A stretch of DNA of 63,847 nucleotides, filler included, from Folioceros fuciformis (Eukaryota), in assembly GCA_049999805.1 (NCBI GenBank). It is 3 parts of 2 records of this genome, joined end to end, with 100 filler letters (N's around TTAATTAATTAA, not from the genome) between each part and the next. Parts side by side here need not be neighbours in the genome. Positions count along the whole stretch, not along the records: positions 29,257 to 61,130 come from JBNGIO010006249.1; 2 more parts are not named here. One strand, written 5' to 3'. Below the pieces are notes generated by a model that saw only the letters and a list, made by a program, of their open reading frames with translations, searched no databases and was not told the origin of the DNA. Positions 7,841-38,849 of this stretch are shown one piece after another. The translations under genes were made by a program, and so were the position numbers. Numbering within the stretch: position 1 is the stretch's first letter; each line of letters opens with the position of its first letter.

Positions 7841-9616
7841 TTATGCACTAGTAGCTACATTCTTTATCGGTACATCGTTGCATGGTGTGTGGGAAATGGG
7901 CAACTTGTTTTTTTTTTCCCTTCGATGTGAATGCATTTTTGGTGGATTGACTAAAGGCTTAGAGGCTCCATTGTCAAGATCACTTTCATTGTGATCCTCC
8001 TCTTCCTTGTCACTAGCATTAGTATCAGTCATATCATAACTCTCACTTGAAGAGCCTGAGTCACTTTCTGATGAGGATTGATCATCGTACTTTATGACTA
8101 CAAGTACATCATTTAATCCTACTTGGGAGGTAGACCCATCTGTCCATGCAACTTCAAAATCCCCACTATCCGATAGTTGCCCAATGATAAAACCAAACCA
8201 TGCTATTGTAGATTGCAAATTAAGACCATCACAAGTCATAGGCAATCTAACCACAACATCTTTGATGTTGTAATCGTATTGTGTATGTTTGTGAAGCTTA
8301 GACACACTTACAACTTGTTCTTTGAAATTCACATCTCTATTGGGAGGACATCCCAACCACCTTATAGTTGCAGTGCCTTGCTTTGCATCTACTCGTTGTA
8401 TGATGCCAACTTGGTCATGCTCCATTCTGTTGGAATCTTCTTCCTTATTCACATTTCGAAGAGTTACACATTGCCTTGGCCAAAAATTATGCTCTTCATT
8501 AAGCATATTAACGTGAATGAGTTGGCAAGAGTTCACAAGCTTGCTTGTTGTTCCATCTTGCCAAAGCACATCAACTGTAGTTTTGATGCCTACAACTTTA
8601 TGACAACCTTGAACAACATCACCCTTCTCTTCACATTTTTGGCGTTTGGGTTGAGATTCTAAAGTAGGGCGTCGACCTTTAGATTTTTGCTTCTTGTTTT
8701 CACATACGTCATTACTACCCTCAAAGCTAGAGCCTTCAACAACCCATGCTTCATTGTAATTTTTCATGCTACCATCCAACAAACATCGGTCACCTAGCTC
8801 CCAATCCGCATAAGCAAATTGGTTCATCACAATCAAATCTTTAGGCTTCTGTTGCCTCTTGGGCTTCCTCCAAATCCCAGATACATTGGCATAAGTAGCA
8901 ATCCATTCAACAACAACCATATTAGTATCAATTCGTGAAACGGTCCCACGTTTTCTTCCCTTATTGTACCTTCCAACTAACCATTTTGCCTTTCCTAAAG
9001 TTTTTGCATGACTTGCTACAACTTTTTGGCCAACAAACAATGGCATACCTTCCTCATTCTTATTTTGACATGTGAGGCGATTAGGGTTTGTTAGCTTTAT
9101 CTCACACTTGGCTCCATCATTAAACACCAATGTCACAAGCTCAACGACGGAGTGCACTTTTCCCACCCATCTAGCACCAATAACAAAGTCACCCACTTGA
9201 AATGAGGTCATCGTTCTTAATCCTTTAGTATCTACGTCCTCCATAAGTACACCACTTGCAAGTTCCAGGTCCACTTTGATCATAACGTTTATCACAATAC
9301 CCATTTGTCCTAATGGGTCCAGGGCACGTGCTACTACATCGTTATGTCTTAGATTTCTATCCACAATTTGGAGATGGTTTGGATCGATATTGGTCTCCCT
9401 TAAGTCCATCCACAAAACCCTTGTTTGCTTGCTAGTTTCTTCCTCTGGCTCCTTACCACTATCAGATTCGGAGTTCGAACCTGGATCTCCAAATGTTCTT
9501 TGAACAATACCTAACCGAGAAGGATTAGATTTTATGCAAACCACATCATCACGAAACACTTGATGAGTTCTACAGCCCATTTCCATTTTCTCTTTCCTTT
9601 CCCCTTCTCCTACCAT
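7841..9616 (-). CDS. UBC23/UBE2O-like protein, N-terminal SH3-like region only, no UBC catalytic domain; intronless
   Basis: Motifs DRNLRHNDVVARALDPLGQMGIVINV, FQVGDFVIGARWVGKV, FAYADWELGDRCLL, KTTVDVLWQDGT, VGIIQRVDAKQGTATIRWL, YDYNIKDVVVRL and FEVAWTDGSTSQVG parallel the UBC23/PHO2 N-terminal region. The ORF ends in an acidic Ser tail. ATG at 9616 (the ORF track starts at an upstream TTG). Confidence 0.75.
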   Translation of the reverse strand: MVGEGERKEKMEMGCRTHQVFRDDVVCIKSNPSRLGIVQRTFGDPGSNSESDSGKEPEEETSKQTRVLWMDLRETNIDPNHLQIVDRNLRHNDVVARALDPLGQMGIVINVMIKVDLELASGVLMEDVDTKGLRTMTSFQVGDFVIGARWVGKVHSVVELVTLVFNDGAKCEIKLTNPNRLTCQNKNEEGMPLFVGQKVVASHAKTLGKAKWLVGRYNKGRKRGTVSRIDTNMVVVEWIATYANVSGIWRKPKRQQKPKDLIVMNQFAYADWELGDRCLLDGSMKNYNEAWVVEGSSFEGSNDVCENKKQKSKGRRPTLESQPKRQKCEEKGDVVQGCHKVVGIKTTVDVLWQDGTTSKLVNSCQLIHVNMLNEEHNFWPRQCVTLRNVNKEEDSNRMEHDQVGIIQRVDAKQGTATIRWLGCPPNRDVNFKEQVVSVSKLHKHTQYDYNIKDVVVRLPMTCDGLNLQSTIAWFGFIIGQLSDSGDFEVAWTDGSTSQVGLNDVLVVIKYDDQSSSESDSGSSSESYDMTDTNASDKEEEDHNESDLDNGASKPLVNPPKMHSHRREKKNKLPISHTPCNDVPIKNVATSA

Positions 9617-10114: not shown

Positions 10115-13100
10115 TTACAGGATGCTGCTATTCTCCTGTTGGTGCTCTGGGTGGATCAGATTCTCCCGGCACGCTGAGCTGATCTTTCGAAGCATGTCAA
10201 AGACCTCCTGGTCCTGCGAATGCTTGCAATTTCCAACCATGAAAAAGCGGGCCTGCTGGCCATGCTCGATCCAGCTGAGGCCAGGCTCTTTGCAGGCACC
10301 TTCCTCCTTCATCCTTCTCTCCACCCTCTTTGCGCAATCCAGAAGGCCGGCATCGGCATAGATGTGTAGCATCAATTTGTATGCTGCAGCGTGCTTTGGC
10401 TGTAGTTGAATGGCAGAAGCAAAGGCCCGCTCTCCTAACGCAGTGTTGCCGTGCTTCCGACAGGCACCCAGCACGCACAACCACGTAGCCAGATTGGGCT
10501 GCATTGGCATCGACCACAACAAAGCTTCCAGCTGGGTGAAGTATCCTGCACGTCCGAAGAGGTCCAGCATGCTTACGTAATGCTCAAGCTCTGGACGGAT
10601 GCCATGGTCTCGATTCATTGCTTTGAAGTACTCCACTCCCTTGTCCACCAGGCCGGCGTGGCTACACGCAGCGAGGATTGATAGAAATGTAACTCCATCC
10701 GGATCGAATCCCTCGAGCTGCATTCTGTCGAAGCATTGCAAGGCTTCATGGACGAGTCCGTGCTGAGCATATGCAGCTATCATGGCATTCCAGGTCACCA
10801 CGTCTCTTGTGCCTAGGCTCATGAACGCGCCGTGTGCAGCATCTAAGCTTCCGCATTTAGCATACATGTCCACCAGGCAGCTCCCCACACCGGTGTCAGA
10901 TTCCAATCCCCTCTCCTGAATCTGGAGATGCAGTTGCTGTCCTTCATCTAGTGATGCAATGCTTGCACATGCCTTCAAGAGGCTCAGAAATGTGACATTG
11001 TCAGCACAAGCCATTCCTTCCTGCTTCATACCTGAATATAGGACAAGGGCCTTCTGCCCGAGCCTGTGCTTAGCGTACGCTGCCAGTATGGTGTTCCATG
11101 TCACGGTGTCTTTTGTTACCATATTGTCGAACACCTTGCTGGCCTCATCCAAGATCCCGCATTTTGCATACATATCCACTATGCAGTTGCCCACAGCTAC
11201 ATCAGATTCCAGACCCAGCTCCACGGCGTGGCTGTGCAGAATCTTGCCTTCACGTAGAGCTCCAATGCTGGCACAAGCTTTGAGGAGGCACACGAGAGTA
11301 ATGCGGTCGGCTGGAATGATGCCCTCTTCAGACATGCTCGTGTAAAGAGCAAGGGCTTCTCGCCCGTGACCCTGCTGGGCATATCCTGCAAGCATGACAT
11401 TCCAGGTTGCGCCGTCCTTTGCAGGCATCCTGTCGAACACTCGTCTTGCCTCACGTAAGCTCCCACATTTGGCATACATGTCAATCACGGAGTTGCAAAC
11501 CGTCACATCGGGTTCCAGTCCTGCTTCCTGTGCCGAAGTGTGGAGTTGCCTTCCCTGATCTAAGGCTCCAATTGTGGCACAAGCTTTGAGGAGGCAGACG
11601 AATGTTACGTCACCCGCTGGCGTTACGCCCTCCAGCTGCATCCTTGCGTAAAGAGCAAGGGCTTCCTTGCCCAGCCCATGCTGAGCATAGCCTGCCAGCA
11701 TGGCATTCCAAGTTCTTTCATCTCTCGTGGCCAACTTATCGAAGAGCCTGCGAGCGTCGTCCAGACTCCCACATTTCGCATACAGATCCACCAAGCAGTT
11801 GCCAATAACCACATCTGATTCCAGCCCTCTCTCTTTTACCTGTGCATGGAGCTGCTTTCCCTGGTCTAGGGCTCCAATGCTAGCACATGCTTTCAGGAGG
11901 CTCACAAAAGTCACAGGAGTAATGGCTACCTGCTGTTCCATGGTTGCGTACAAAGCAAGGGCCTCTTCTCCAAGTCCATGCTGAGCATATCCGGACAGCA
12001 TGGCATTCCATGTAACCACGTTCCTGCTGGACATGCTTTCAAACACACTGCGCGCATCAGCCAAACTCCCGCATTTTGCATACATGTCCACCAAGCAGTT
12101 GCTCACAATGACATCAGTTTCTAGGCCCCTTTCCTGGATGTGAGAATGAATCCGCTTGCCCTCATGCGATGCTCCAATGCTTGCACATGCTTTTAAGAGG
12201 CAGACAAATGTAACATGATTAGGTGAAGGTATCCCCTTTTGTTGCATGTTGGCATACAGAGACAGGGATTCTAGCGCAAACCCAAGGTGAGCATATCCGG
12301 CAATCATGGTATTCCATGTGACGACATCTTTCACAGCCAGCGTGTCAAACACCTGGCGGGCATCATCTAGTCTTCCACATTTTGCATACATGTCCACCAG
12401 ACAATTTCCAATGACCACGTCGTTTTCATGTCCTGTTTGCTGCGTATGCATATGGAGGTGCCTCCCATGATCTAATGCTCCCACAGACGCACAAGCCCGC
12501 AGGAGGATCACAAATGTGACCTCACCAGGGATGATGCCCGTCTGCAGCATACCGGAGTAAAGAGCCAGGGCTTCCTCATGGAGCTCTTCACGTGCATATC
12601 CTGAGAGCATGGCATTCCACGTAACTACATCTCTTTCGACCAGGTTGCTGAACAGCCTGCGGGCCTCCTCCAAGCTCCCGCACTTGACATACATGTCCAC
12701 CAGGCAGTTACCCACAAACAGGTCCGGCCCTACCACACTCTGCAAAACATCAGCATGAACTTGCCTGCCTGATTTCAGGTGTGCTGCAGCAGAGCACGCC
12801 TTCAGGACTGCAACGAATGTATGGTTGTCCGGCACCACTTCTGACTTTTGCAGCTGCCAGTACAGGTTAATGGCCTGAATAGGGTGTCCATGTTCAGCAT
12901 GGGCCGAAATGATGGAGGACCAAGAATAGGCATCTGGAGCAACCAGTCTGCTGAACACCTGTGAAGCTAATTGCAACCTCCCATGAGAGCTGTACATGCG
13001 GATGATGTGGTTACCGAAGTAAGTATGGGACTCATACCCACTTTTGACAAGAAGAGCGTGAATGCCCCTGCCCACAGCCAGACTCTTCTTTGCCACTCGC

Positions 13101-13270
13101 GTCGTGAGAATCTGGCAAAATAAAGCTGTGCACACGAACAACCCTCGCTGCACCAGCAAATCCAAAGTTTGGACTGTCTCGGTAAGCTGTCCGCTGTCAC
13201 ATGATTTGCTCCAGGTTCCAACCTCCGAGTCTGCTTCCAGACCTGCCCCCCTGGAAAATGCAGGAAACAT
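10115..13270 (-). CDS. PLS-class PPR protein with E1-E2 and truncated DYW (E+ type) organellar RNA-editing factor
   Basis: Intronless ORF of about 1050 aa made of repeated P-L-S triplets (DVVTWNAMLSGYA, VTFVCLLKAC, VGNCLVDMYAKCG). It is followed by P2-L2-S2, E1/E2 and a PG box KEPGLSWIE, then stops with no HxE/CxxC. The 5' start is uncertain. Confidence 0.95.
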   Translation of the reverse strand: MFPAFSRGAGLEADSEVGTWSKSCDSGQLTETVQTLDLLVQRGLFVCTALFCQILTTRVAKKSLAVGRGIHALLVKSGYESHTYFGNHIIRMYSSHGRLQLASQVFSRLVAPDAYSWSSIISAHAEHGHPIQAINLYWQLQKSEVVPDNHTFVAVLKACSAAAHLKSGRQVHADVLQSVVGPDLFVGNCLVDMYVKCGSLEEARRLFSNLVERDVVTWNAMLSGYAREELHEEALALYSGMLQTGIIPGEVTFVILLRACASVGALDHGRHLHMHTQQTGHENDVVIGNCLVDMYAKCGRLDDARQVFDTLAVKDVVTWNTMIAGYAHLGFALESLSLYANMQQKGIPSPNHVTFVCLLKACASIGASHEGKRIHSHIQERGLETDVIVSNCLVDMYAKCGSLADARSVFESMSSRNVVTWNAMLSGYAQHGLGEEALALYATMEQQVAITPVTFVSLLKACASIGALDQGKQLHAQVKERGLESDVVIGNCLVDLYAKCGSLDDARRLFDKLATRDERTWNAMLAGYAQHGLGKEALALYARMQLEGVTPAGDVTFVCLLKACATIGALDQGRQLHTSAQEAGLEPDVTVCNSVIDMYAKCGSLREARRVFDRMPAKDGATWNVMLAGYAQQGHGREALALYTSMSEEGIIPADRITLVCLLKACASIGALREGKILHSHAVELGLESDVAVGNCIVDMYAKCGILDEASKVFDNMVTKDTVTWNTILAAYAKHRLGQKALVLYSGMKQEGMACADNVTFLSLLKACASIASLDEGQQLHLQIQERGLESDTGVGSCLVDMYAKCGSLDAAHGAFMSLGTRDVVTWNAMIAAYAQHGLVHEALQCFDRMQLEGFDPDGVTFLSILAACSHAGLVDKGVEYFKAMNRDHGIRPELEHYVSMLDLFGRAGYFTQLEALLWSMPMQPNLATWLCVLGACRKHGNTALGERAFASAIQLQPKHAAAYKLMLHIYADAGLLDCAKRVERRMKEEGACKEPGLSWIEHGQQARFFMVGNCKHSQDQEVFDMLRKISSACRENLIHPEHQQENSSIL

Positions 13271-19656: not shown

Positions 19657-22598
19657 ATGGGAGCGGGGCCATCGAAGGACGAGCAGCTGTACAATGCCGT
19701 GCAGAGTAATAATCACAACGCAGTTAAGGCGTTGCACCGGGAGGGAGCTTCGTTGGAGGTGGGTGTGTCTCGCTCAGCATGGCCTGGTCCTGGGCCTAGG
19801 TGCATGTTTTCTTTTCTTTCAGGGAATATGAAAAACTGTTGAATTCCCTCGCCTCTGCATGATGCGCAGTGGGTGGATAAGGAAGGAAGAACACCGCTGA
19901 TTCTGGCGTGCACACGAGGAGACTTGTTCGATATGGTCATACTTCTCCTCAGCTTGGGTGCGAATTCGAATGTGTACAGACCTGGTAGGGATCCTTCCTA
20001 CGCTTCCCGTGTCCACATAATTCATGCCGCCGCATTTGCGTCAAGTTGAATGTGATGGGAGTGCCCTGTGAGTATGCAGGGGCGCATGGAGGCCTTCCTC
20101 TCCATCATGCTGCTAAAAGGGGCCTAGACAAGACTGTGTTGCTTCTTCTGAGGAATGGAGGTGAGGAGTTTTTGGTTATGCCTTCTTGCGCCAGCTGTTT
20201 GCCTCTTTGTTGCAGGAAATGGCAGGCTTCGGCACCACATGCCCTGTCGTAATCAGATTTATCCCTCCTACCTCCTAAATGGTTTTGGTCTTGTGCACAG
20301 CTGACCCGTTGGCAATCAATGACGATGGATTAAGTCCCTTGGATATGGCAAGGGCTAGAGAGCATGTGACTATTGTGCGAAGAATAGAGGTACGCCTTTG
20401 AATTTCGAAAGACGGGAGGGAGGAGAGCTGAGAGTTGCGGTACTTATGCTTGTTGCGCACAGAAGTGATGTCTGCTCTGCTCGTGGTAGCAAGCTGACAA
20501 ACCCCGTGCTCCTCAGGACAAAATTTGCTTGTTCAGTGGTTTTGTGCGAGAGCAATCGGGTCCTGGATTTCTGGAAGTCATAGCCCCTCAGTGGGTCACT
20601 AAGAAAGTGTGAGACGCCGATATATCAGGCCTCCTTCTCAATGGATTTTACCAAATTGGCATCTTCTAGTCCGGCTTCAAAGAAGCGTATATGCTGGCAG
20701 TTATGAGTAGCTGAAGTTGGTGCTTGGCTGCAATGCAGTTGGGCTGTTGTGCTACCAGCTGAAACCCCCGACCCAAGAAGGCCGCCCAAGTTTGATCTTG
20801 TCATCTACCAGTCGCCAAAGGTTGGTTCATAGTTTTGGACCTTAAGCACATCTGTGGGTTTGGTACAGCTGAATCTGCATTCTTGAAGTCAATACAGTCC
20901 ATTTCCAGTTTACCATCTTAGAAGTTGGGGAGCTTGTGCTGGTGTTTTCTGTGGGGCTTGATGTATATACTGTGCATTTGTGCTAGTTCAGGTGAGCCTA
21001 TGGAATGGAGTGAATGCTACACCTTCGTCTCATCCTGCTGGCCCCTGCAATGTTAGTATGTTATTACCGCTTCTGTCTCATAAATCATGTCGTATCACAA
21101 TATGTGTACTCCTGATTGTACTTCTGCTTGAGGAAATGGATTTGTTTCTTGGAATGGCCGCTAGTTCAGCATGTTATGGGGACTCATCTTGCAACTCTCT
21201 CGTTTGCCAGGTTGCTGTTCCAAGAACAGTCTTGCACCTTTCAAAGTGTGAAATTGAGGAACCAAAGTTCAGCACGGCATCACCACAGCTGCTGATCACT
21301 GAAAGGAGCACAAGTATGGTTGCAATGCTACCTGCCAAGTTTTGGTTTACCTCATCTCTGGTTCCGGAATTGTTGTGCCTTGCCGCTGGCTTTGCATGCC
21401 CTATTGTCTAACATTGTGGCCATTTCTGTGGCCATTGCTAGCAGAAACAAAGCACAAGTTTCTTTCAGAGATGGAAGGTGACAAAGCTCAGCTGGAAAGA
21501 TTCTGGATGGCATGCAAGGGTATACAGCAGGTATATTGTAAAACTGCGGTGGTTTTGACAGTTCGGGCTCCGACCCTTACTTTAGCCTAGGCGTTCATCC
21601 TTTCTACTTTGTACAATGTGTAATTATCTGTGAAATGTTTTGACCAGGCAAGGATTCCAGGGCACTCCCAGCATCCTCCACCTCCTGCAGCCTCCGTGCA
21701 AGGGCCACCACAGATACAGGGTCCCAGGATTCCCTCGAATACAGCGAGGCCAGTTCCAGCTCCAGTTAAACCTTCTGGACAAACGAGTGCAGGGCCAGGA
21801 TTAGGAGTCAAGCTAGCCCCTGATCCGCAGAGTCAGATGACAGAGGATGTTGCTTTGTCCATGGCAATCGATGCATCGCTTCGCACGGCCTCAGAAGAGG
21901 GGTTTCCCCTTTCTCCAAGTGCATTCCGCCAGTCTCTTGACTCTAATGGATGGGGTGATACTGCAGAAAGCAGCTATTCCGGATGGGGACCTCCGGAAAG
22001 CAAGAAAGCAAGCCCCCCTTCCAGGACCAGCTACGGTGGTTGGGAGGCTGAAAAGCAGAGTGCATACAACGGCTGGGCATCTCCGGAAGAAACAGGGCCA
22101 GGCAGAAGAGGTTCTGGAGATGCACTGCCCCATGTTCCAGAAACGGTGCAAGAGGCGCTGCCTCATGTTCCTGGAACGGTACAAGAGGCCCATCACGTGG
22201 ATAGCTCAGGAACCAGGATTCACAGCTCTGCAGCAAGTCCTCCAGCTCCCGTATCCTCTCCATCGGCTCCACCTCTTCCTTCACACTATATGCCTCCTGC
22301 AGAGTATGATGGTCCAATTCATTATCCGTCCATTGACACCTCTCCAGTGAAGGTCGACTACACTCCGATAGTGGGTGCTGTTGACAAGGTTCCCGATGAG
22401 AGTGCGAAGAAAATCGAGCAGGAGAAGGCTGGAGGGCTGTGCGTCGTATGCTGGGATTTGCCAGCTGTTGGTGTTTGTATCCCTTGTGGTCACCTTGCAG
22501 GCTGTATGGATTGCCTCTCTGAGATTAAAGAGAAGAATTGGGGATGTCCTGTTTGTCGAGCTCCAATCGATCAGATAGTGAGGGTATTTCAGGTTTGA
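19657..22598 (+). CDS. XBAT34/35-like ankyrin-repeat RING-HC E3 ubiquitin ligase, multi-exon
   Basis: MGAGPSKDEQLY start (myristoylation-like MG), ankyrin repeats (WVDKEGRTPLILAC, GGLPLHHAAKRGLD), EDVALSMAIDASL, PSAPP, GPIHYPSID, and a C-terminal RING CVVCWD...CIPCGHLAGCMDCL...CPVCR. Confidence 0.9.
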
Positions 22599-29440: not shown

Positions 29441-32400
29441 ATGGAAAGCACGCTCCCTCGCTCCTCGCATTTGGTGTCCGAGATAGAACTGGTGGACGAG
29501 TCGGGGGCGTCGTCTCAGGTGAATGGCGGGGGCTCACTGGCCTCGTCCACGGGGCCGGATGTGAGAGCGCACGCCGTAGCCTCGTCCAATTCAGCTGCTC
29601 AAAGGAGCTCGGACGCGTCCACTAGCTTCAAGGGAGAGCCGGGTCTGTATAAGAAGGTCTTGTACGTGCCGGGGATCTCGCCCTTTCCACATTTCCCGAC
29701 CGGGAGCAGGGCCACTGCGGAGACAGACGACGGGGCTGGATTTTGCTGCTGCTGCTTGCCCCGGGACGCAGGTCTGGATGGGACGTCGGAGGGGATGTCT
29801 AAGCCGGAAGCAAGTCATACAGGGACAAGGAAATCTGATGGGCAGCAGGACGGGGAGCAGGAGGTGGACATCTTGAGGGGACTTGGGGCGTATTGGAGGG
29901 AGTGGGTGATGGGGTTGCAGAGCAGGACGTTTTATGTGGGTGTGCTCTTGGTGTGGGCTGGGCTTGTGCCTGCTTTGGTTTTCGGGACCTGGATGGGTAG
30001 GAAGACCGGGGGTGCTATTGGGACTGCTGAGGTTTTCATGTCCACCTTGGTCTGCGGGGTTTTGTTTGCGGTTTTCGGAAGGGAGCCTCTGGTGATTGTG
30101 GGTGTGACTGCTCCGTCGGCTGTGTTTGTGGCCGCAGTCGCAAGCACTGCCAACAGGTTGTCTGTGGGGTTTGTCCCCTGGTTGGGCTGGATAGGCATCT
30201 GGTGTGCGGGAAGCTTGATGATTCTGGCAGCGTCTCATGCCAGTCGAGCTGCAGCGCATCTGAGTAGGTTCAGCTGGGAGGTGCTGCAGGCTTTCGTGGG
30301 GCTCACTTTGCTCTGGGATGGGACTCAGCTGGTCGTGGAGCTTTTCAGACCTGGAGTTCCCTTGGACGCTGCCATTCTCTCCCTCTGGCTTGCAACCTGT
30401 ACAGTTGTGTTGGCAACGTTTTTGAGCGGAGCGGCTGGTTGGCAGTACCTTAATAGTTGGTGTCTGGAGGCAATACAGTTTCTTGGTCCGGCATGGACGA
30501 TGATTCTCTTCACTGGTATGTGAGACTGCTTCCCTCTTTCATTCTCCTGTAGGAGCCTTGTTGCCTTTCATCACACGCAGGGATGGGGTCTAACTAAAAT
30601 AGCTGCTTCTGCTGGCATGTGTGGAATGCAGCGCTTCCCCTTCTGCCACTCCTGTCGCAGCCACAGCTGCTGCGGGTGGAGATGCCGGACCTGCCGTATC
30701 ATAACAACAGAGTCTCGAAGTTTGGAGCAGTTGTGAGCTTGAGGGCTCTCCCACTGTGGACCATTTTCCTGGCTTTCATTCCAGGGTCTCTGTTGGCCGG
30801 GTTGATCTTCTTCGACCACAACGCATCTTTCCTTTTAGTACAGGTAGCGGTAGCTATCCAGGGTGCGCATATGTTTTGGATTCACCATATTTGGCTCCTT
30901 CGTCTGAGGGCAGATTCTTGGTGTGATGTTATGGAAAGCAGGATGCAAAAGGGAGGAGAGAGTATGATTACAGGTCCAGAAGCTGGGATGTGTTCGTGAT
31001 CGCTGTATCCGTATTGCTGTGCAGTTTCTTCGGTCTGCCTTTCAGCTATGGACTATCAACACAGGTGAGATCCCGTTCGAGCCCACAGACTGTGAGGCAC
31101 ATGCTTCATCTTTCGTTTGGTTTCTGGTCTTCAGTCCTCTATCCAGAGATGTCTTCACCTTCATCCTTCCGTTTGCAGAGCGTTTCGCATACTCAAGCTC
31201 TTGCTTGTAAGAACGATGCGTGTGATCTGGAGAGCCAGCAAAAACCTGCATGTAGAGCACACTACCAGCGTGTCTCAGCTACCATTGTCGCACTGTCTTC
31301 AGGGATTCTGCTTCTCCCGGGGTTTGTGCATCTTGTACGGAAAATACCACAAGGTGTTATTGCAGGCCTGTGTCTGCAGGTAAGTGATATCCGTGGTTCT
31401 GCTCTCGTTGTTGAAAGCCTGCGAATTTTGGACAGCTCAATCCCGTGGAGGTCGCTGAGGGGCAGTCTTTGTGCAGGTCGCTCTCGTTTGCCTGAAGGAC
31501 CTGACGCTCGTTGAAAGGATCAAATTGTTATTCGTGGACTCCATGAAGAATCCGTCTGCAGCAGAGGGATGCAATCTCACAGTTCGTGTGTACAGTATTG
31601 TGCAAGTGTCCTGCATCGTCACCGTGTTTGCTGTCAGCAAAACTGCCGCTGCTCTCCTCTTCCCTCTGTTCTTGCTGGTCACGGTTTGGTTAAGGCACGA
31701 TGTGTTGCACAACTTCTTCTCCAAGAGAGAGTTCCTCACCATCGACAAGCGGCTACTGGCAACCGACATCTTTGAGGGCACTGCTGCAAGTCATCCCACA
31801 GTCGGCAAGACTTCGAGGCGGCTGCGTAAAGGTGGTCCTCACTCTCTGAGGAAGCTTCTTCGGGACAGAGTGGGTGTGTCGGGCCCGGCCGTAGCCTCCA
31901 AACTACACATGCAACTGGACAGCGAGTCTGCGAGGTCGTGTGAGTCACCAGCTTTGCTTGCCATGGCCAGCAAACGGAGACTGAAGGAGAGATCAAGGAG
32001 GAGGAACAAGAGGAAGATGTCGCACGGGGCATCATCCTTCGAGACCACTTCTTCTTCCACCTTCACACTTCCACTGCAGCCCAGTGACATGATGAAGAAG
32101 AAGCAGAAGAGTTCAGCACAGAATTTCAGGCCCAAGGTCACGCCTCACCATGTAGGTTCCAGGTTTGGCAGACAACAGGCCACCCAGAAGAGCAGACGTC
32201 AACAGGGAAGGGGTGGCATAGTCTCCTTTGTGCCGGGAAGAGACTTGAGTCCGTTCGGGGATAACAGTTATCTCCCATCTTCTCAGGTGCACTTCTCTCC
32301 CAAGTCTAAGCAAATTCAAGAGAAGGCTGATGTCCGTATTCCCAGGAGCAGGCCGATGGTGACTTTCAAGCCTGAGACCAGTAGTCCATTCCATCAGTTT

Positions 32401-33654
32401 TCACCCAAGATGGAGATACCACTGCCGTCCAATATCTCCGTGCTCAGACGGAGCCTTCCCAGCCCATTCAGACAGGTGTCACCAAAGTCACAGATGCTGC
32501 ATGCCAACTCTCTCTTCGATCCTCATTGGAAGGACTCTTCACCTCCGAACAAAAGCATGCAGGTCCATGAGAATTTGGCCTTCTTGACAGGCGAGGGCCC
32601 GGCTGCCAAATTTTCTTCTAGGCCGCAGATAGTTGAAAGAAAGAAGGCGGTTCCATCTCCAAGAAAGTCTCCGCTCACTCTCAGGTTCTCTGCCCCACTC
32701 CTACCAAACCAGCCTATGTTGCAGGATCTACAGCGGCCTTGGGAAATGAGCTCATCTGCTTGGACAAGGTCTGCACTTCCTGATCAACTAAGTGCCAGCA
32801 GCTTCCGACTTTGCGGTGACGCTCTTCCTAGCACAGGGGCCAGTGAGATATTGACCCTGGCATTGGCAACTACCGACATGCTTTCCAATGGAGGCAACGA
32901 ACTCTCCAACACTAAGGACTGGAAAGAGGCCAGCTCTGTGCAGCCAGATGATCAAGGGGTGTCTCCGACTGCTGATCCACTACGCAGGGAAGGTGGAAGG
33001 AGTGAAAGGAGGACTCTGTCAGCCAGCTCTGTGACTAGTGGAGATCATCTGCTGGACCCCGAAGGAAAAAGGAGCACCATGGTTCACGGCTGGGAAGCTG
33101 TGACGCATCCTCCACCGGCGGAGGTCCGACCAAGCCGATTCAAGCTGGCAAGCGAAGTCCTATTCGGAGAGACTTCTGGTAGCAGCTTCCATAGCATGGA
33201 GACTGCCTCCAATGGAGTTCTGAGATTGAGAAGAGAGGATGAAAACCGCGCTCTTCTGTCACGTTCGTGGGAAGAGGTTAATTACTCGCCCCATGAGGAT
33301 TTTGCAGACACCAGTAGCAGTTCCCATCCCCAAGCTGCAGACGAGCCTTGGGTGTCCCAGCCTCCCAAGCCCAAATCTCGACCTAAAAGGAAGTCTGGTT
33401 CAGGCAATGAGTCGCAGCAGCAGGGGACCCAATCATCTATGGGTCTGCAGCAGCAAGACCAGCGGCACCTTTCCAGCTCCAGACCCCTTCCGTGGACTCC
33501 TGAGCGGAGTACCAGGAACACAAGACTGCGTTCATCATCGTCGGAGTTCACAGACCAATTTGAGGAGCTTGGGGCTTCCAAGCAACAAAGCCAGCACAAG
33601 CTGCAGAAGTTGCCAAAGAGCCCGCCGGTAACACATCCTTGTGCAGCCTGCTGA
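29441..33654 (+). CDS. divergent SLC4/BOR (HCO3-/borate transporter family) protein with a very long disordered C-terminal tail, multi-exon
   Basis: LVPALVFG...TGGAIGTAEVFMSTLVCGVLFAVFGREPLVIVGVTAP, WIGIW, SRFSWEV, LIFFDHNAS, HTQALA, YQRVSATIVAL, KIPQGVIAGL and AALLFPLFLLVTVWLRHDVLHNFFSKREFLTID, followed by about 630 S/P/R-rich residues. Confidence 0.85.
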
Positions 33655-33939: not shown

Positions 33940-35037
33940 ATGAAGTCATCCTCCTTGCGCAGAGCGCTGGCCATTCTGCACCACATCCATCCTCTCGCTC
34001 CTTCGTCTCCAATTCGTTTTCTGTCACCGACGAGTGCGAGCTCCGCCGATGATGGCAGGTTGTCTGAGTGTGGAGCTGGTGAACAACCTCCACAGCGTGA
34101 CGGTGGCCTTGCAAATGCTGACACACCTGGGAAGCAGGACGAGCAACAGCCGAGGAAGAAAAAGGTGGTGCTGGTGATCGGGGCCGGGGACGCGACTGGC
34201 GGGGCTGTGGCTCGAAGGTTTGCCAGGGAGGGTTTTGTGGCGTGTGTGGTGAGGAGACATGCGGATGCACTGCAAGGGCTTGTGGACGATATCCGGCGTG
34301 AGGGGGGACAGGCTCTTGCATACGGAGTGGATGCTCGCAGAGAAGGTATGTGTGTCGTGCAAGATCTGTTTTGGTGGAGATGGAGGTCCGATGGAGTTCC
34401 GGGAATCACAGCTGTGTTGTCATGGGCTCACCGCAGAGGATGTGGTTGCTTTGGTGGAGGGGATCGAGGCTGAGGTTGGGGAAATACATGTGGCTGTGTT
34501 CAACATCGGAGCTAACGTTAATTTCAGCATTCTGGACACCACTGTTAGAGTCTACTTCAAGGTCAGGATTGCTCTACAATCAAGCAATTCTTCTTGTCCG
34601 GCAACTGAGAGCGCTGGTATTGCATCCAGGTGTGGGAGATGGCTTGCTTTTCAGGCTTTTTGATGGGGCGTGAGGTAGCCAAGCACATGGTGAGGCGAGA
34701 GCAAGGAACCATTATTTTTACAGGTGCAACAGCAAGCTTGCGAGGTGGAACAGGGTATGCTGCATTCGCGGGCGCCAAATTTGCGTTGAGGGCCTTGGCA
34801 CAAAGTATGGCAAGGGAACTAGGACCCAGAGGCATTCACGTTGCTCATGTTGTTGTGGATGCGGCTATTCTCACTTCCTGGACTCTGGAAAACGTCAAGA
34901 ATGCTAAGGCAGCAAATTCCAGGGGAGGGTTGGTGATCCCGCCGGACATCGCTGAAGCGTATTGGCAGCTGCATGTGCAGACCAAGACGGCATGGACCCA
35001 TGAACTCGACCTCAGACCCTGGATCGAACCCTGGTGA
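33940..35037 (+). CDS. short-chain dehydrogenase/reductase (atypical FxxxK subgroup) with an organellar presequence, 3 exons
   Basis: VLVIGAGDATGGAVARRFAREG, FNIGANV, FTGATASLRG, YAAFAGAKFALRALAQSMARELGPRGIHVAHVVVD and WTHELDLRPW. Two GT-AG introns at about 34346-34436 and 34562-34629. Confidence 0.92.
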
Positions 35038-35259
35038 ATTTGGCGCTTTCCATACCTGTTCTGTGTCAGATGTGTATCAAATTGTCGAAAAATGTGTTCA
35101 ATAATGCTTTGATGAACACATAGCCGGGATGTCCACAAGCCTCCACCCGGGGTATTATGACCATCCATGTCCATATCTCGGTTTGGAGGAGGGTGGAGTT
35201 AAGCCAGCACCTTCACAACAAAAAGAAAACAATAGCACTGGCGATTTCTTCCATCGTCC

Positions 35260-38049
35260 TCACGGTCTACCCTTACAACTGCAACAACCAGCTGCAAATC
35301 GATGCACACGGTATCCGTCCCGCACGACAATGTCTCTGTGCTCCAGTCTTGACATGATCTCCGTGGAAGTGTGGCAATCACTGCACATGCGTAGATTCTT
35401 AGTTACCACGAGAGGTGTCCCACTCGGAGTGTTCAAGAGGCCAAAAGCCAGAGCTAGCTTCTCTGCATGCCCACAGAGTGCGTCTTCCTTTTCCTTCTCA
35501 CACATGGGCTTTAACACCAGCTTTGTGTGAGGTACGTGGCCCCCTTCCTGCTTCACACGCGAATTCATGCTCTCTACCTGAAGAGCAATATCCTGTCTCC
35601 TTTCTCCCACCAGAAATTCATGGACCTCCTTATTCACTTCAATGCTCGCCACTGCAGGTTTCTTGTTAGCTCCAGCTGCCAGCCTTTGTGTTTCAATCCT
35701 GTCTACGTCGGCCCATCTACCTGCATCTGCATAGGCATTGGCCATGAGCACGTACGCGGGGGCCTCCTGGGGGTCCAGCCTTACAATGCTTTCAAAACAC
35801 CATATAGCCCTCTCCAAGTCGCCGTGACTTTTGCAGGCATTCAACAACGACGTCAGGCCCACAACATTGCTTTGGTCCTCGCAAGATAGTAGCATCTTCT
35901 CTGCCTCATCCAAATGGCCGGCACGACCGAGAAGATCAATCATACAGGTGTAATGCTCGATACTAGGTTTGATGCCATATTGTTCAGCCATGGAATCAAA
36001 GTGCTTGAAACCCTCGCGTATCAGTCCCTCATGACTGCATGCCACTAAAAGACAGGTAAAGGTGATATCATTAGGCTGGATACCGGCAACTAACATCTCC
36101 TCAAAGCAGGAGATTGCGTTGAGACCTTCATCACAAGTACCATAGCCAGCTATCAGGGCATTCCATGTGACCACATCCTTGGTGGGCATGCCGTCAAAAA
36201 CCTGGCGTGCATCCTCCAGTTCACCGCAGTTTGCATACATGTCCACTAGGCCGTTTCCCAAAATTACGTTATCCAGCAGACCTCTTTCGACAATCTGAGA
36301 GTGCAGCTGCCTGCCCCTCTGTAAGGCACCAGTGCTTGCACAGGCTTTCAAAAGGCAAGCAAATGTAACATGGTCAGCTAAGATAAGGCCCTCCTGCTCC
36401 ATTTGTCCATACAGAACAATTGCCTCATGTCCCAGCCCTTGCTGGGCATACCCAGCTATTAGAGCATTCCATGTCACCACATCCTTTGCGACCATGCTGT
36501 CAAAAACCTGGCGTGCATCCTTCAGTTCACCACGTTTTGCATATCCAGATATCAAGGCATTCCATGCCACCACATCCTTCGTGGCCAAGCTGTCAAGAAC
36601 CCAGCGTGCAGCTTCCAGTTCACCACATTTTGCATACATGTCCACCAGGCAGTTGCCCACGAGCGCGTTATGGTGCAGTCCTCTTTCAACAATCTGTGAG
36701 TGCAGCTGCCTGCCCTTCTGCAAGGCACCAGTGCTTGCACAGGCTTTCAGAAGGCAAGCAAGAGTGACGTAGTCAGCCACAATAAGGCCCTCCTGCTCCA
36801 TTTGTCCATACAGAACAAGGGCCTCCTGTCCGAGCCCCTGGTGGGCATACCCGGCTATCAGGACAGTCCATGTCACCACGTCCTTCGAGTTCATGCTGTC
36901 AAAAATCTGGCGTGCATCTCTCAGTTCACCACATTTTACATACCCGGATATCAGGGCGTTCCACGTCACCACATCCTTTCTGGCCATGCTGTCGAAAACC
37001 TGGCGTGCATCTTTCAGGTCGCAACATTTTGCGTACATGTCAACCAGGCAGTTGCCAACGAACAAGTTCGTGGGAATGCCACTGTGTAACACATCACAGT
37101 GCACTTTTCTGCCGGATTCCAAGTCGGTGGCAAATGCACAAGCTTGAAGGGCAGCTACAAAAACGTGCGCATCCGCCTTCACTCCTGACCTACGCATCTC
37201 ATGGTAGAGTTGTATGGCCTCGTTAGGTTTCCCGTGCTTAGCATATGCAGAGATGATAGAAGACCACGTGAAAACATCTGGCTTGCCCACCCTGGAGAAC
37301 ACATCCATGGCCTCCTTCAGACTACCTCCACATGCATACATGCGCAATAGATGGTTCCCCAAGTATGCATTTGACGCGTACCCAAGTTTGACAGCGAGAT
37401 CATGAACTCGTCGCCCCAAAACCAAATCCTTCTTAACTGTACACAATTTAAGCACAGTGCAAAACAGGGACTGAGAAATACCCTCGTCTGTCTTAGCCAG
37501 AGACTCCAGGGCTCCAACAGCCTGAGAAAGCTTCCCCTGCTGACATAAAGTGCTCACGGCGACGGCCGTAACCACGCCCACTCCGGGTTCTTCACGGCTG
37601 CCAGATTCAGCCTTATTCGAACAAGTCTCCACGGAGTGAGAGGCACCATGACCCGTGTGCATATCCAAGGAAACGAGCTGCTCATCAACCCAAGCTGGCT
37701 TAGACATGTGGTCCAACCACAGCACCTCCCCGGACCCCTTGCGCTGGAAGTCAGGCGAACGGGAGCTCTTCTTATCTCGTCTGTTGTCCCACCACAGGGC
37801 AGGGTCCAGAAAAAATTGTTGCCACAAGTGCTCCTGCTCCTGGCAACGACCATCACTACAAACCTTGTCACCACCCACACACCTTCTGGAAAGTTGGATT
37901 GCGGGGTTGCTTGCACTCTTGCACCTGAAGGCCTTGCTTGCCAGGGTTTGACTCGCTAACATGAGGTGCGCGGGGGGTTCTCTTGCAATCTCTGCGCACA
38001 CACCAGATTGTTGGGCCCACAACGGGCCCCGCTGCCAGACTATGGCCAT
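35260..38049 (-). CDS. PLS-class PPR protein with an N-terminal OSB-type PDF motif and a C-terminal DYW:KP (GRP-ending) domain; candidate U-to-C RNA editor
   Basis: Intronless 929 aa ORF with a PLS array and E1/E2. It has KPAVASIEV instead of the PG box, HAEKLA plus CSDCH zinc ligands, and the C-terminus CSCKGRP. Residues 75-129 read LWQQFFLDPALWWDNRRDKKSSRSPDFQRKGSGEVLWL. Confidence 0.95.
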   Translation of the reverse strand: MAIVWQRGPLWAQQSGVCAEIAREPPAHLMLASQTLASKAFRCKSASNPAIQLSRRCVGGDKVCSDGRCQEQEHLWQQFFLDPALWWDNRRDKKSSRSPDFQRKGSGEVLWLDHMSKPAWVDEQLVSLDMHTGHGASHSVETCSNKAESGSREEPGVGVVTAVAVSTLCQQGKLSQAVGALESLAKTDEGISQSLFCTVLKLCTVKKDLVLGRRVHDLAVKLGYASNAYLGNHLLRMYACGGSLKEAMDVFSRVGKPDVFTWSSIISAYAKHGKPNEAIQLYHEMRRSGVKADAHVFVAALQACAFATDLESGRKVHCDVLHSGIPTNLFVGNCLVDMYAKCCDLKDARQVFDSMARKDVVTWNALISGYVKCGELRDARQIFDSMNSKDVVTWTVLIAGYAHQGLGQEALVLYGQMEQEGLIVADYVTLACLLKACASTGALQKGRQLHSQIVERGLHHNALVGNCLVDMYAKCGELEAARWVLDSLATKDVVAWNALISGYAKRGELKDARQVFDSMVAKDVVTWNALIAGYAQQGLGHEAIVLYGQMEQEGLILADHVTFACLLKACASTGALQRGRQLHSQIVERGLLDNVILGNGLVDMYANCGELEDARQVFDGMPTKDVVTWNALIAGYGTCDEGLNAISCFEEMLVAGIQPNDITFTCLLVACSHEGLIREGFKHFDSMAEQYGIKPSIEHYTCMIDLLGRAGHLDEAEKMLLSCEDQSNVVGLTSLLNACKSHGDLERAIWCFESIVRLDPQEAPAYVLMANAYADAGRWADVDRIETQRLAAGANKKPAVASIEVNKEVHEFLVGERRQDIALQVESMNSRVKQEGGHVPHTKLVLKPMCEKEKEDALCGHAEKLALAFGLLNTPSGTPLVVTKNLRMCSDCHTSTEIMSRLEHRDIVVRDGYRVHRFAAGCCSCKGRP

Positions 38050-38849
38050 CCTTGAGCAAGTGCTGTCGGTGGATGAGTCTACCTACTAACAGACTATGGC
38101 AGAATGCCCAGGTGCAATGCATGAGCACAGCAAACGGGCATCAGAGCTGTAGACCTGGCAAAATGGCGCAGCAAATCAAGGCTGGACTGCACCTGGACAG
38201 AGTAGCATTGAATCCTGGACCTGCATCCCGAGAACGTAGCACTGGCACGTGCAACCTTATTCCACACTTGGTCCTTGTTGATATGGACCTGGGGCTGCTG
38301 AAGTCCGCTTATGAACAATGAAGTGCTTTAAATCAGCTCATTCCAGAGTCTACGAATCGAAGAGACATTTCTCACATTTCGGCCGGCGGATGTCTGTCTG
38401 TACATGATTGGAGGAACATGATCGCCTACATGAGCAGTTGCATGGACGCTGTAGCTTGGTGGCCGATCAAAAACGTTAGTCACGACACAAGACGTGCCAG
38501 CCGAACATTGACAACTATTTCAAGCTCTAATTGAAGATCAAGAGGAAGAATTTTATACATAAAAGACAAAATTCAAAAAACAAAATCTTGAATCACTGAA
38601 CAAGTGTCCATGCCAAGGGCCAACAATTGCTGTGCAACAACTGGATCTCATGTTTCTTGCCAGCAGAATTTGCAGGAGCTGAAGTGCTACTCCCAGAGCA
38701 GACATTTTGTACTTGCTTCAAGCAGCATCCAGCACTTGTGACAAGAACTTTCACTGGATAGTGATAAGCTTAACCTGCCCGGAAGCCCCGCTTTGTGCAC
38801 TGGTCACGAAATCCATCAGACACAATTCACCGTCCCCTCGTGAGGGACT

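Follow-up and report, generated by a model that had tools for sequence, protein, structure and literature searches.

An OSB-type PDF motif at the N-terminus of a Folioceros fuciformis DYW:KP protein appears to be an old and frequent module of PLS-class pentatricopeptide repeat proteins

Does a DNA-binding motif at the N-terminus of an organellar editing factor mark it as a reverse editor? The question is raised by an intronless open reading frame (ORF) on the minus strand of a 63,847-nucleotide stretch, filler included, of the Folioceros fuciformis genome (assembly GCA_049999805.1), which we refer to as the window. The ORF encodes a pentatricopeptide repeat (PPR) protein of 929 residues that combines, at one end, a DYW domain of the kind associated with uridine-to-cytidine (U-to-C) editing and, at the other, a copy of the PDF motif of the plant organellar single-stranded DNA (ssDNA)-binding proteins, the OSBs. 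Our results suggest that the interest of this motif does not lie in marking reverse editors; rather, it appears to be an old, frequent N-terminal module of PLS-class PPR proteins in non-seed plants.

The foundation of this reading is the homology itself, and sequence comparison leaves little room for doubt that residues 72-125 are homologous to the OSB PDF motif. A phmmer search with residues 70-130 against 1,835,955,588 cluster representatives returned 606 matches at E<=1e-3, 140 at E<=1e-10 and 15 at E<=1e-30, many with several matched stretches. They include an Amborella protein named "protein OSB3, chloroplastic/mitochondrial" (P0013; E 2.4e-39, 4 stretches) and a Populus protein named "protein OSB1, mitochondrial-like" (P0033; E 2.1e-22). 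Further, an SSB-type OB fold (E<=0.01) was detected in 42 of the first 100 non-PPR matches, upstream of the PDF stretch in the cases inspected, and this predicted order, OB fold then PDF, is the OSB architecture. A profile of 54 positions, assembled from 385 motif copies in 141 non-PPR matches, aligned residues 72-125 to its positions 1-53 with 72.5 bits, a score that is not fully independent (see below). The matches to named OSB1 and OSB3 proteins and this end-to-end score against an OSB-type profile, which the initial annotation had named as a check, both bear out its assignment of the motif to the OSB family. The Pro-Asp-Phe signature is present as P99-D100-F101, with each residue in an invariant column; across 74 aligned single-copy proteins, all eight invariant columns are kept (W76, D88, R90, K93, P99, D100, F101 and P118), as are 10 of the 11 nearly invariant ones, the exception being a histidine replaced by R103. 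When the N-termini of eleven proteins were aligned, conservation was confined to the motif, with the presequence and linker varying freely. Both chance resemblance and an artefact of gene modelling are ruled out by the phmmer matches, the non-PPR profile score and the N-terminal alignment. Word-index protein searches with residues 60-135 against proteins of near length and shorter found nothing; the full HMMER scan succeeded.

A six-frame scan placed the sole PDF copy in the window at 37675-37836 (67.7 bits). The initial annotation had given 37663-37827, which on the minus strand corresponds to residues 75-129, while the peptide it quoted covers residues 75-121; the plus-strand frame of the same interval reads as an unrelated peptide. 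The parts of the gene are as follows, with pLDDT denoting the predicted local distance difference test score.

35260..38049, minus strand: intronless ORF of 929 amino acids plus stop codon, comprising presequence, PDF, linker, PLS PPR tract, E motif and DYW:KP domain (GRP)
37852..38049, minus strand: variable presequence, residues 1-66, varying among PDF-PPR relatives, with pLDDT <50 over residues 30-61
37675..37836, minus strand: PDF motif, residues 72-125, from the profile and six-frame scan
37654-37851, minus strand: modelled PDF mini-domain, residues 67-132, from AlphaFold2
37588..37650, minus strand: predicted flexible linker from the PDF to the PPR solenoid, residues 134-154, pLDDT <50 and not conserved
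35827..37566, minus strand: PLS-class PPR tract, residues ~162-741, matching Pfam PPR, PPR_1, PPR_2 and PPR_3, with helical pairs in the model
35638..35826, minus strand: E motif, residues 742-804, PF20431, 51.1 bits
35263..35670, minus strand: DYW domain of the KP/GRP kind, residues 794-929 (the last 136), PF14432, 109.3 bits

With tandem PPRs, an E motif and a DYW domain bearing HAE at 861 and CSDCH at 889, the protein has the composition of a PLS-class PPR editing factor. Pfam recognized PPRs in 12 stretches (293.8 bits) and DYW_deaminase over residues 837-927 and returned zero matches within residues 1-150, because Pfam holds no scoring model of the PDF. The SSB domain (PF00436) had no match at E<=1 anywhere in the 929 residues; since this fold is undetected, the protein, to judge by its sequence, shares the PDF motif yet is not an OSB. 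An in-frame methionine, Met30, opens a targeting peptide rich in S, A, R and K, whose composition is more typical than that following Met1; the PDF begins at residue 72, or at residue 43 if translation starts from Met30.

The combination is not confined to the window. PPR proteins made up nine of the 150 best phmmer motif matches, originating from Diphasiastrum complanatum, Selaginella moellendorffii, Ceratopteris richardii, Adiantum capillus-veneris, Pteridium aquilinum and one record without a name, and a tenth case is a 147-residue fragment with a PDF and then a PPR repeat (P0090). Four database proteins exemplify the arrangement: KAJ7558666.1 (P0138, Diphasiastrum complanatum), XP_024517303.1 (P0128, Selaginella moellendorffii), KAH7429238.1 (P0145, Ceratopteris richardii) and KAI5076972.1 (P0111, Adiantum capillus-veneris). 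The database PDF-PPRs share with the window protein the order of presequence, PDF, linker and PPR tract, but mostly carry a PG-type DYW domain ending in DYW or lack the DYW domain, and are at most 54% identical to it, 54% being its best identity in the database. Their source names are "hypothetical" or plain "pentatricopeptide repeat-containing", and none mentions the motif.

To gauge frequency, we ran the non-PPR PDF profile at E<=1e-3 over the 120 full-length proteins most closely related to the window protein. The motif was found in 39 of them, always near the N-terminus, bar one apparent merged gene model; in the following counts, some absences may reflect truncated gene models or truncated N-termini in assembled ORFs.

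Diphasiastrum: PDF in 31 of 44 sampled
Adiantum: PDF in 2 of 15 (weak, partial)
Ceratopteris: PDF in 0 of 6
Cryptomeria: PDF in 0 of 5
Ginkgo: PDF in 0 of 7
Calypogeia (liverwort): PDF in 2 of 2
Sphagnum: PDF in 1 of 1
JGI record: PDF in 1 of 1 (partial)
EukProt transcript: PDF in 0 of 1
Records without source name: PDF in 2 of 38

That typical PLS-DYW editors lack the motif, as initially supposed, is contradicted by its presence in 39 of the 120 relatives and in 31 of the 44 from Diphasiastrum. The statement may hold for seed plants, given that none of the 12 sampled gymnosperm PPRs (Cryptomeria and Ginkgo together) carries it. In the predicted proteins, the same layout, namely, a variable presequence, one to three PDFs, a linker and a PPR tract, recurs in a liverwort, Sphagnum, lycophytes and ferns, and it is found ahead of PG-type, KP-type and DYW-less C-termini alike. 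Some PPR relatives have two or three tandem PDF copies.

Several observations on individual gene models stand beside this pattern. Three tandem N-terminal PDF copies occur in P0009 (1371 residues) and in P0184, P0199 and P0298 (the last three from Diphasiastrum), and these three-copy PPR proteins mirror the multi-PDF OSB3/OSB4 group of seed plants. P0197 has its second PDF at residues 680-732 and apparently fuses two adjacent genes into a single model. The PDF was also found in two long angiosperm gene models, P0044 (Coptis chinensis, 1526 residues) and P0055 (Striga hermonthica, 1063 residues), of which one includes a kinesin motor and the other takes its name from a ROP interactor, yet has an SSB fold; they may represent merged neighbouring genes rather than true fusions. 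The window itself holds a second intronless PLS PPR gene (10115..13270, minus strand, 1051 residues), which has an E motif and the PG box KEPGLSW and is without a complete DYW domain and without a PDF. Thus, PDF-bearing and PDF-less PPR genes occur in one genome, here ~22 kb apart in window positions.

Hornwort DYW:KP proteins of the GRP subgroup were reportedly put forward as candidate U-to-C editors by Gerke et al. and Gutmann et al. in 2020. The window protein resembles them in its PLS tract, its E motif and its 136-residue DYW domain with the KP box, HAE, a methionine before CxxCH and the GRP end. Specifically, KKPAVAS at residue 796 replaces the PG box, HAE occupies residues 861-863, K884 and M888 precede CSDCH at 889, and GRP forms residues 927-929. 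These marks uphold the original reading of the C-terminus as DYW:KP of the GRP subgroup, by which the protein classifies, from its sequence, as a candidate U-to-C editor. The terminal GRP triplet and the low ceiling of 54% on database identity also point to a hornwort as the likely source. K884, four residues before M888, corresponds to Lys88, and M888 to Met92, of the KP numbering by residue count rather than by alignment, and Lys88 is named as essential (PMC11845758). Ichinose et al. 2022 (PMC9478123) call the two hornwort DYW:KP subgroups GRP and DRH and describe as their marks the KP box, HAE and, for the former, the GRP end; the GRP-based designer proteins KP2 and KP3 converted U to C at ~26% and 22%, respectively, in E. 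coli, and U-to-C activity was demonstrated for designer proteins KP2, KP3 and KP6. Unlike the window protein, the designer KP proteins bear a thioredoxin tag at the N-terminus and no PDF module, and an N-terminal PDF goes unmentioned for the hornwort class in the available portions of that article (PMC9478123).

Whether the PDF goes with this C-terminus can be judged from the 59 of the 120 closest relatives whose DYW domain is complete.

HSE with PG box (ordinary C-to-U type): PDF in 16 of 38
HAE with KP-like box: PDF in 2 of 13
HCE: PDF in 0 of 8

There is no sign, among these 59 proteins, of an enrichment of the PDF in KP proteins, and on these proportions we reject a KP-specific association. 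Many further PDF carriers have no DYW domain at all, and the two KP-like carriers comprise one that ends in GRP (P0189) and one that ends in DRH (P0272). The supposition that the motif accompanies reverse editors does not withstand this tally (16 of 38 in HSE/PG, 2 of 13 in HAE/KP-like and 0 of 8 in HCE proteins), and the PDF is very probably an old, general module rather than a KP-specific one. Hence, what endures of the initial annotation is the homology, the position of the motif and the KP/GRP class of the protein, whereas the link to KP editors and the rarity on PLS-DYW editors do not.

Structure prediction adds that the motif may behave as a domain in its own right. An AlphaFold2 model of residues 66-135, based on a 74-row alignment, reached a mean pLDDT of 88.8 and a predicted template modelling (pTM) score of 0.74 and runs in the order helix, strand, strand, short third strand and helix, that is, a beta hairpin between helices. 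In a model of residues 30-330, based on 36 PDF-PPR rows, the PDF had pLDDT values of 90-97, residues 30-61 and 134-154 fell below 50, and PPR helix pairs began at residue 162. By these predictions, the PDF folds as a small unit of its own, flanked by a disordered presequence on the N-terminal side and a flexible linker of ~20 residues on the C-terminal side. The placement of the motif in frame between the presequence and the first PPR helices, as originally described, agrees with both this longer model and the N-terminal alignment. A search of the PDB by sequence gave a best E of 0.37, for a short, chance-level match to CP29, and the ESM Atlas yielded no usable match for the PDF domain.

The PPR-linked copies further appear to share a history. 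They have extra consensus letters in common (FF, WWD) beyond the general motif, and in a tree of 276 copies the PPR label required 10 changes, as opposed to 39.7 when shuffled, with 0 of 500 shuffles as low; the window copy grouped there with those of P0189, P0272 and a 162-residue fragment. A contrast tree restricted to SSB-positive OSB copies, with 23 PPR and 61 OSB rows after thinning, gave 5 changes vs 20.4, and again none of the 500 shuffles went as low. Keeping all 23 PPR-linked PDFs in one group gave a tree 11.2 log-likelihood units above the free quick tree; at a p of 0.664 in the approximately unbiased (AU) test, a single origin is not rejected, though neither is it proved. From these patterns, we infer that a single early fusion may have been followed by spread as PLS PPR genes multiplied. 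Transfer from an OSB-like gene into a PPR gene is the likelier direction because OSB genes occur in streptophyte algae, as reported in a 2026 survey (PMC13393729).

What, then, might the PDF do on these proteins? On balance, we lean slightly toward its being a general helper module of PLS PPR proteins. There is good reason to expect that the PDF is kept on the mature organellar protein, since it is conserved and, by prediction, foldable, unlike presequences, and since it is C-terminal in OSBs. PPR tracts bind RNA with their N-terminus toward its 5' end, and a tethered PDF would therefore sit 5' of the recognised element. There, on a leash of ~20 residues, it could reach the strand just 5' of that element, lend the protein a sequence-unspecific affinity for single-stranded nucleic acid and raise its on-rate or dwell time on single-stranded RNA. 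The PPR code would still set specificity and the DYW domain would still carry out catalysis. The PDF would serve PLS PPR proteins generally and not as a U-to-C device. The binding role itself is put forward more tentatively, at somewhat under even chances, by analogy with OSBs, in which the motif comprises ~50 residues with a conserved Pro-Asp-Phe and the PDF of AtOSB1 is sufficient for ssDNA binding (PMC6963530).

Several points weigh against this helper role. OSB1 and OSB2 are reported to prefer ssDNA over double-stranded DNA or RNA (PMC4166229), a preference more easily reconciled with a DNA tether than with an RNA-affinity helper. The role of the PDF in PPR proteins is deduced from sequence and a predicted fold, and Foldseek gave 0 matches at E<=1e-3 against the PDB, and so no structural relative to back a binding mode; a wide VIA-align search gave a best Z of 3.9 with no match standing out, which does not imply that the fold is novel. 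The PDF is missing from 81 of the 120 relatives, from 11 of the 13 KP-like proteins and from the second PPR gene of the window and is therefore dispensable for many editors. The profile behind the score of 72.5 bits descends from matches to the window motif, and because its seeds were found with that motif, the score is not fully independent evidence. Finally, the tree is built on 53 columns and has few supported branches, and an AU p of 0.66 is not proof of one origin.

The most serious competitor, although we regard it as unlikely, is that the PDF binds organellar ssDNA in transcription bubbles, R-loops or replication and recombination intermediates, thereby tethering the editor to the nucleoid and coupling editing to transcription. 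The ssDNA binding of the isolated AtOSB1 PDF and the preference of OSB1 and OSB2 for ssDNA over RNA (PMC6963530, PMC4166229) speak for such a tether, as does the retention of all invariant and near-invariant aromatic and basic motif residues in the PPR-linked copies. However, the PPR-linked PDFs form a subgroup of their own with extra conserved letters, so the ligand may have shifted, and a tether leaves the absence of the motif from the sampled seed-plant editors (0 of 12) unexplained.

With somewhat less probability, the PDF could be a docking module that, instead of binding nucleic acid in this setting, self-associates or recruits a partner, for instance an OSB, a second editor or a helper protein. 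A small, compact, tryptophan-rich domain on a flexible linker would suit docking as well as it would a clamp, and AtOSB2 is reported to be a tetramer (PMC6963530). Yet, the oligomerisation of OSBs may equally well reside in the OB fold, and reviews assign ssDNA binding to the motif (PMC6963530, PMC13393729, PMC4166229, in the portions available).

A broader proposal, which we consider a long shot, is that non-seed land plants took the PDF from an OSB-like gene on a single occasion and use it as a built-in editing helper, which either couples PLS PPR editors to the ssDNA of transcribing or recombining nucleoids or performs in cis the service for RNA binding that MORF/RIP-type helpers provide in trans in seed plants. 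A built-in helper would explain why the PDF is widespread on the editors of bryophytes, lycophytes and ferns and unseen on the sampled seed-plant editors, and, if this were so, adding or removing the PDF should tune natural and designer C-to-U and U-to-C editors.

That the PDF is instead a targeting or sorting element, part of an import signal and removed or idle in the mature protein, is very improbable. Its closeness to the N-terminus (start at residue 72, 43 from Met30) would fit such a role, but presequences are poorly conserved, and here eight motif columns show no variation over 74 proteins that range from bryophytes to angiosperm OSBs, while the flanks vary. Moreover, the motif is C-terminal in OSBs, far from any presequence; the PDF is predicted to be folded and residues 30-61 disordered; and two or three tandem copies occur in some relatives. 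Lastly, that the PDF redirects a deaminase-like DYW:KP domain to a single-stranded DNA substrate is scarcely credible, for its one point of support is the ssDNA preference reported for OSB PDFs (PMC4166229), the PDF and DYW domains lie at opposite ends with ~580 residues of PPR tract between them, and the PDF is at least as frequent on ordinary PG-type editors and DYW-less PPRs.

The motif was reportedly defined by Zaegel et al. in 2006 in the organellar ssDNA-binding proteins OSB1-4. The window copy agrees with these in its length of ~50 residues, in the P-D-F triad and in the W, F, D, R and K columns that are conserved. OSBs and PDF-PPRs are alike in being organelle-targeted and in that either may carry one to three tandem copies. 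They differ in arrangement, as the OSB motif is C-terminal to an SSB-like OB fold, whereas in the window protein, where an OB fold is undetected, it is N-terminal to the PPR tract; further, the PPR-linked PDFs constitute a tighter subgroup than those of OSBs, with the extra conserved letters noted above. Accessory domains are known on other PPR proteins, including RRM (maize PPR4), SMR, LAGLIDADG, NYN, CBS and SAP, as covered in a Physcomitrium review (PMC9459714). As in those proteins, a helical-repeat RNA reader is here joined to a second small domain, and the RRM of PPR4 is likewise N-terminal and nucleic-acid-binding, but the listed proteins are mainly P-class and the PDF, here on PLS-class editing factors, is off that list in the portions of the review available (PMC9459714).

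Our literature search found no paper linking the PDF motif or OSBs to PPR proteins, although an earlier mention, including in supplements, is possible. Specifically, no such link appears in the available portions of PMC13393729, PMC13386178, PMC9459714, PMC3858439 and PMC6963530, the last of which was the only paper found to contain both "PDF motif" and "pentatricopeptide", the latter term being used for RNA polymerases. PDF and OSB are absent from the main text, as available, of a 2026 survey of editing-factor domain fusions (PMC13386178), while the 2026 OSB survey (PMC13393729) would skip PDF-PPRs because, as its methods are given in the portions available, it required both the OB and PDF domains. 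Motif and enzyme family are each known already; their combination is unrecorded in database names.

In plant organelles, PPR-DYW proteins supply both the specificity and the catalysis of RNA editing, and programmable C-to-U and U-to-C editors are based on them. Against that background, a conserved and, by prediction, foldable accessory domain on a large share of non-seed-plant editors, apparently unannotated in names and in Pfam, is a candidate new part of the editing machinery. The PDF motif, for its part, gains a second and much larger protein context than the OSB family, and the fusion bears both on the ligand of the PDF and on the exchange of parts between OSBs and PPR proteins early in land-plant evolution.

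In sequencing data from the source organism, the PDF-coding sequence is present in many near-copies. We aligned contigs of four public runs to 34800-38800; the summed depth of such an alignment should not be read as copy number. At >=90% identity, dozens of distinct contigs in each run covered ~35200-37880, including the PDF-coding part, as opposed to one or two contigs over the flanks at 34800-35200 and 37882-38800, so that similarity ends where the presequence begins. At place 37797, inside the PDF-coding stretch, the same variant was seen in 42, 52, 53 and 111 contigs of the four runs. Three runs with the same organism label each contain a single contig with a 3-base insertion, CTG, at 37833, immediately upstream of the PDF; the insertion represents an allele or a paralogue. 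In run X3, guessed to be RNA, contigs covered the flank downstream of the gene as in the DNA runs, and no inference on transcription is drawn from it.

Other genes are also present in the window. A 591-residue ORF at 7841-9616 on the minus strand has tandem SH3-B and SH3-C domains of the UBE2O type in Pfam and is probably one exon of a larger gene for an E2/E3 hybrid ubiquitin-conjugating enzyme. Two plus-strand ORFs, at 29441-30523 and 31543-33654, match the start and end of the HCO3- transporter membrane domain (PF00955) and probably belong, as exons, to a single gene for a boron or bicarbonate transporter. A 253-residue ORF at 21837-22598 on the plus strand has a C-terminal C3HC4 RING finger. 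Over the whole window, the G+C content is 49% and 586 positions are N.

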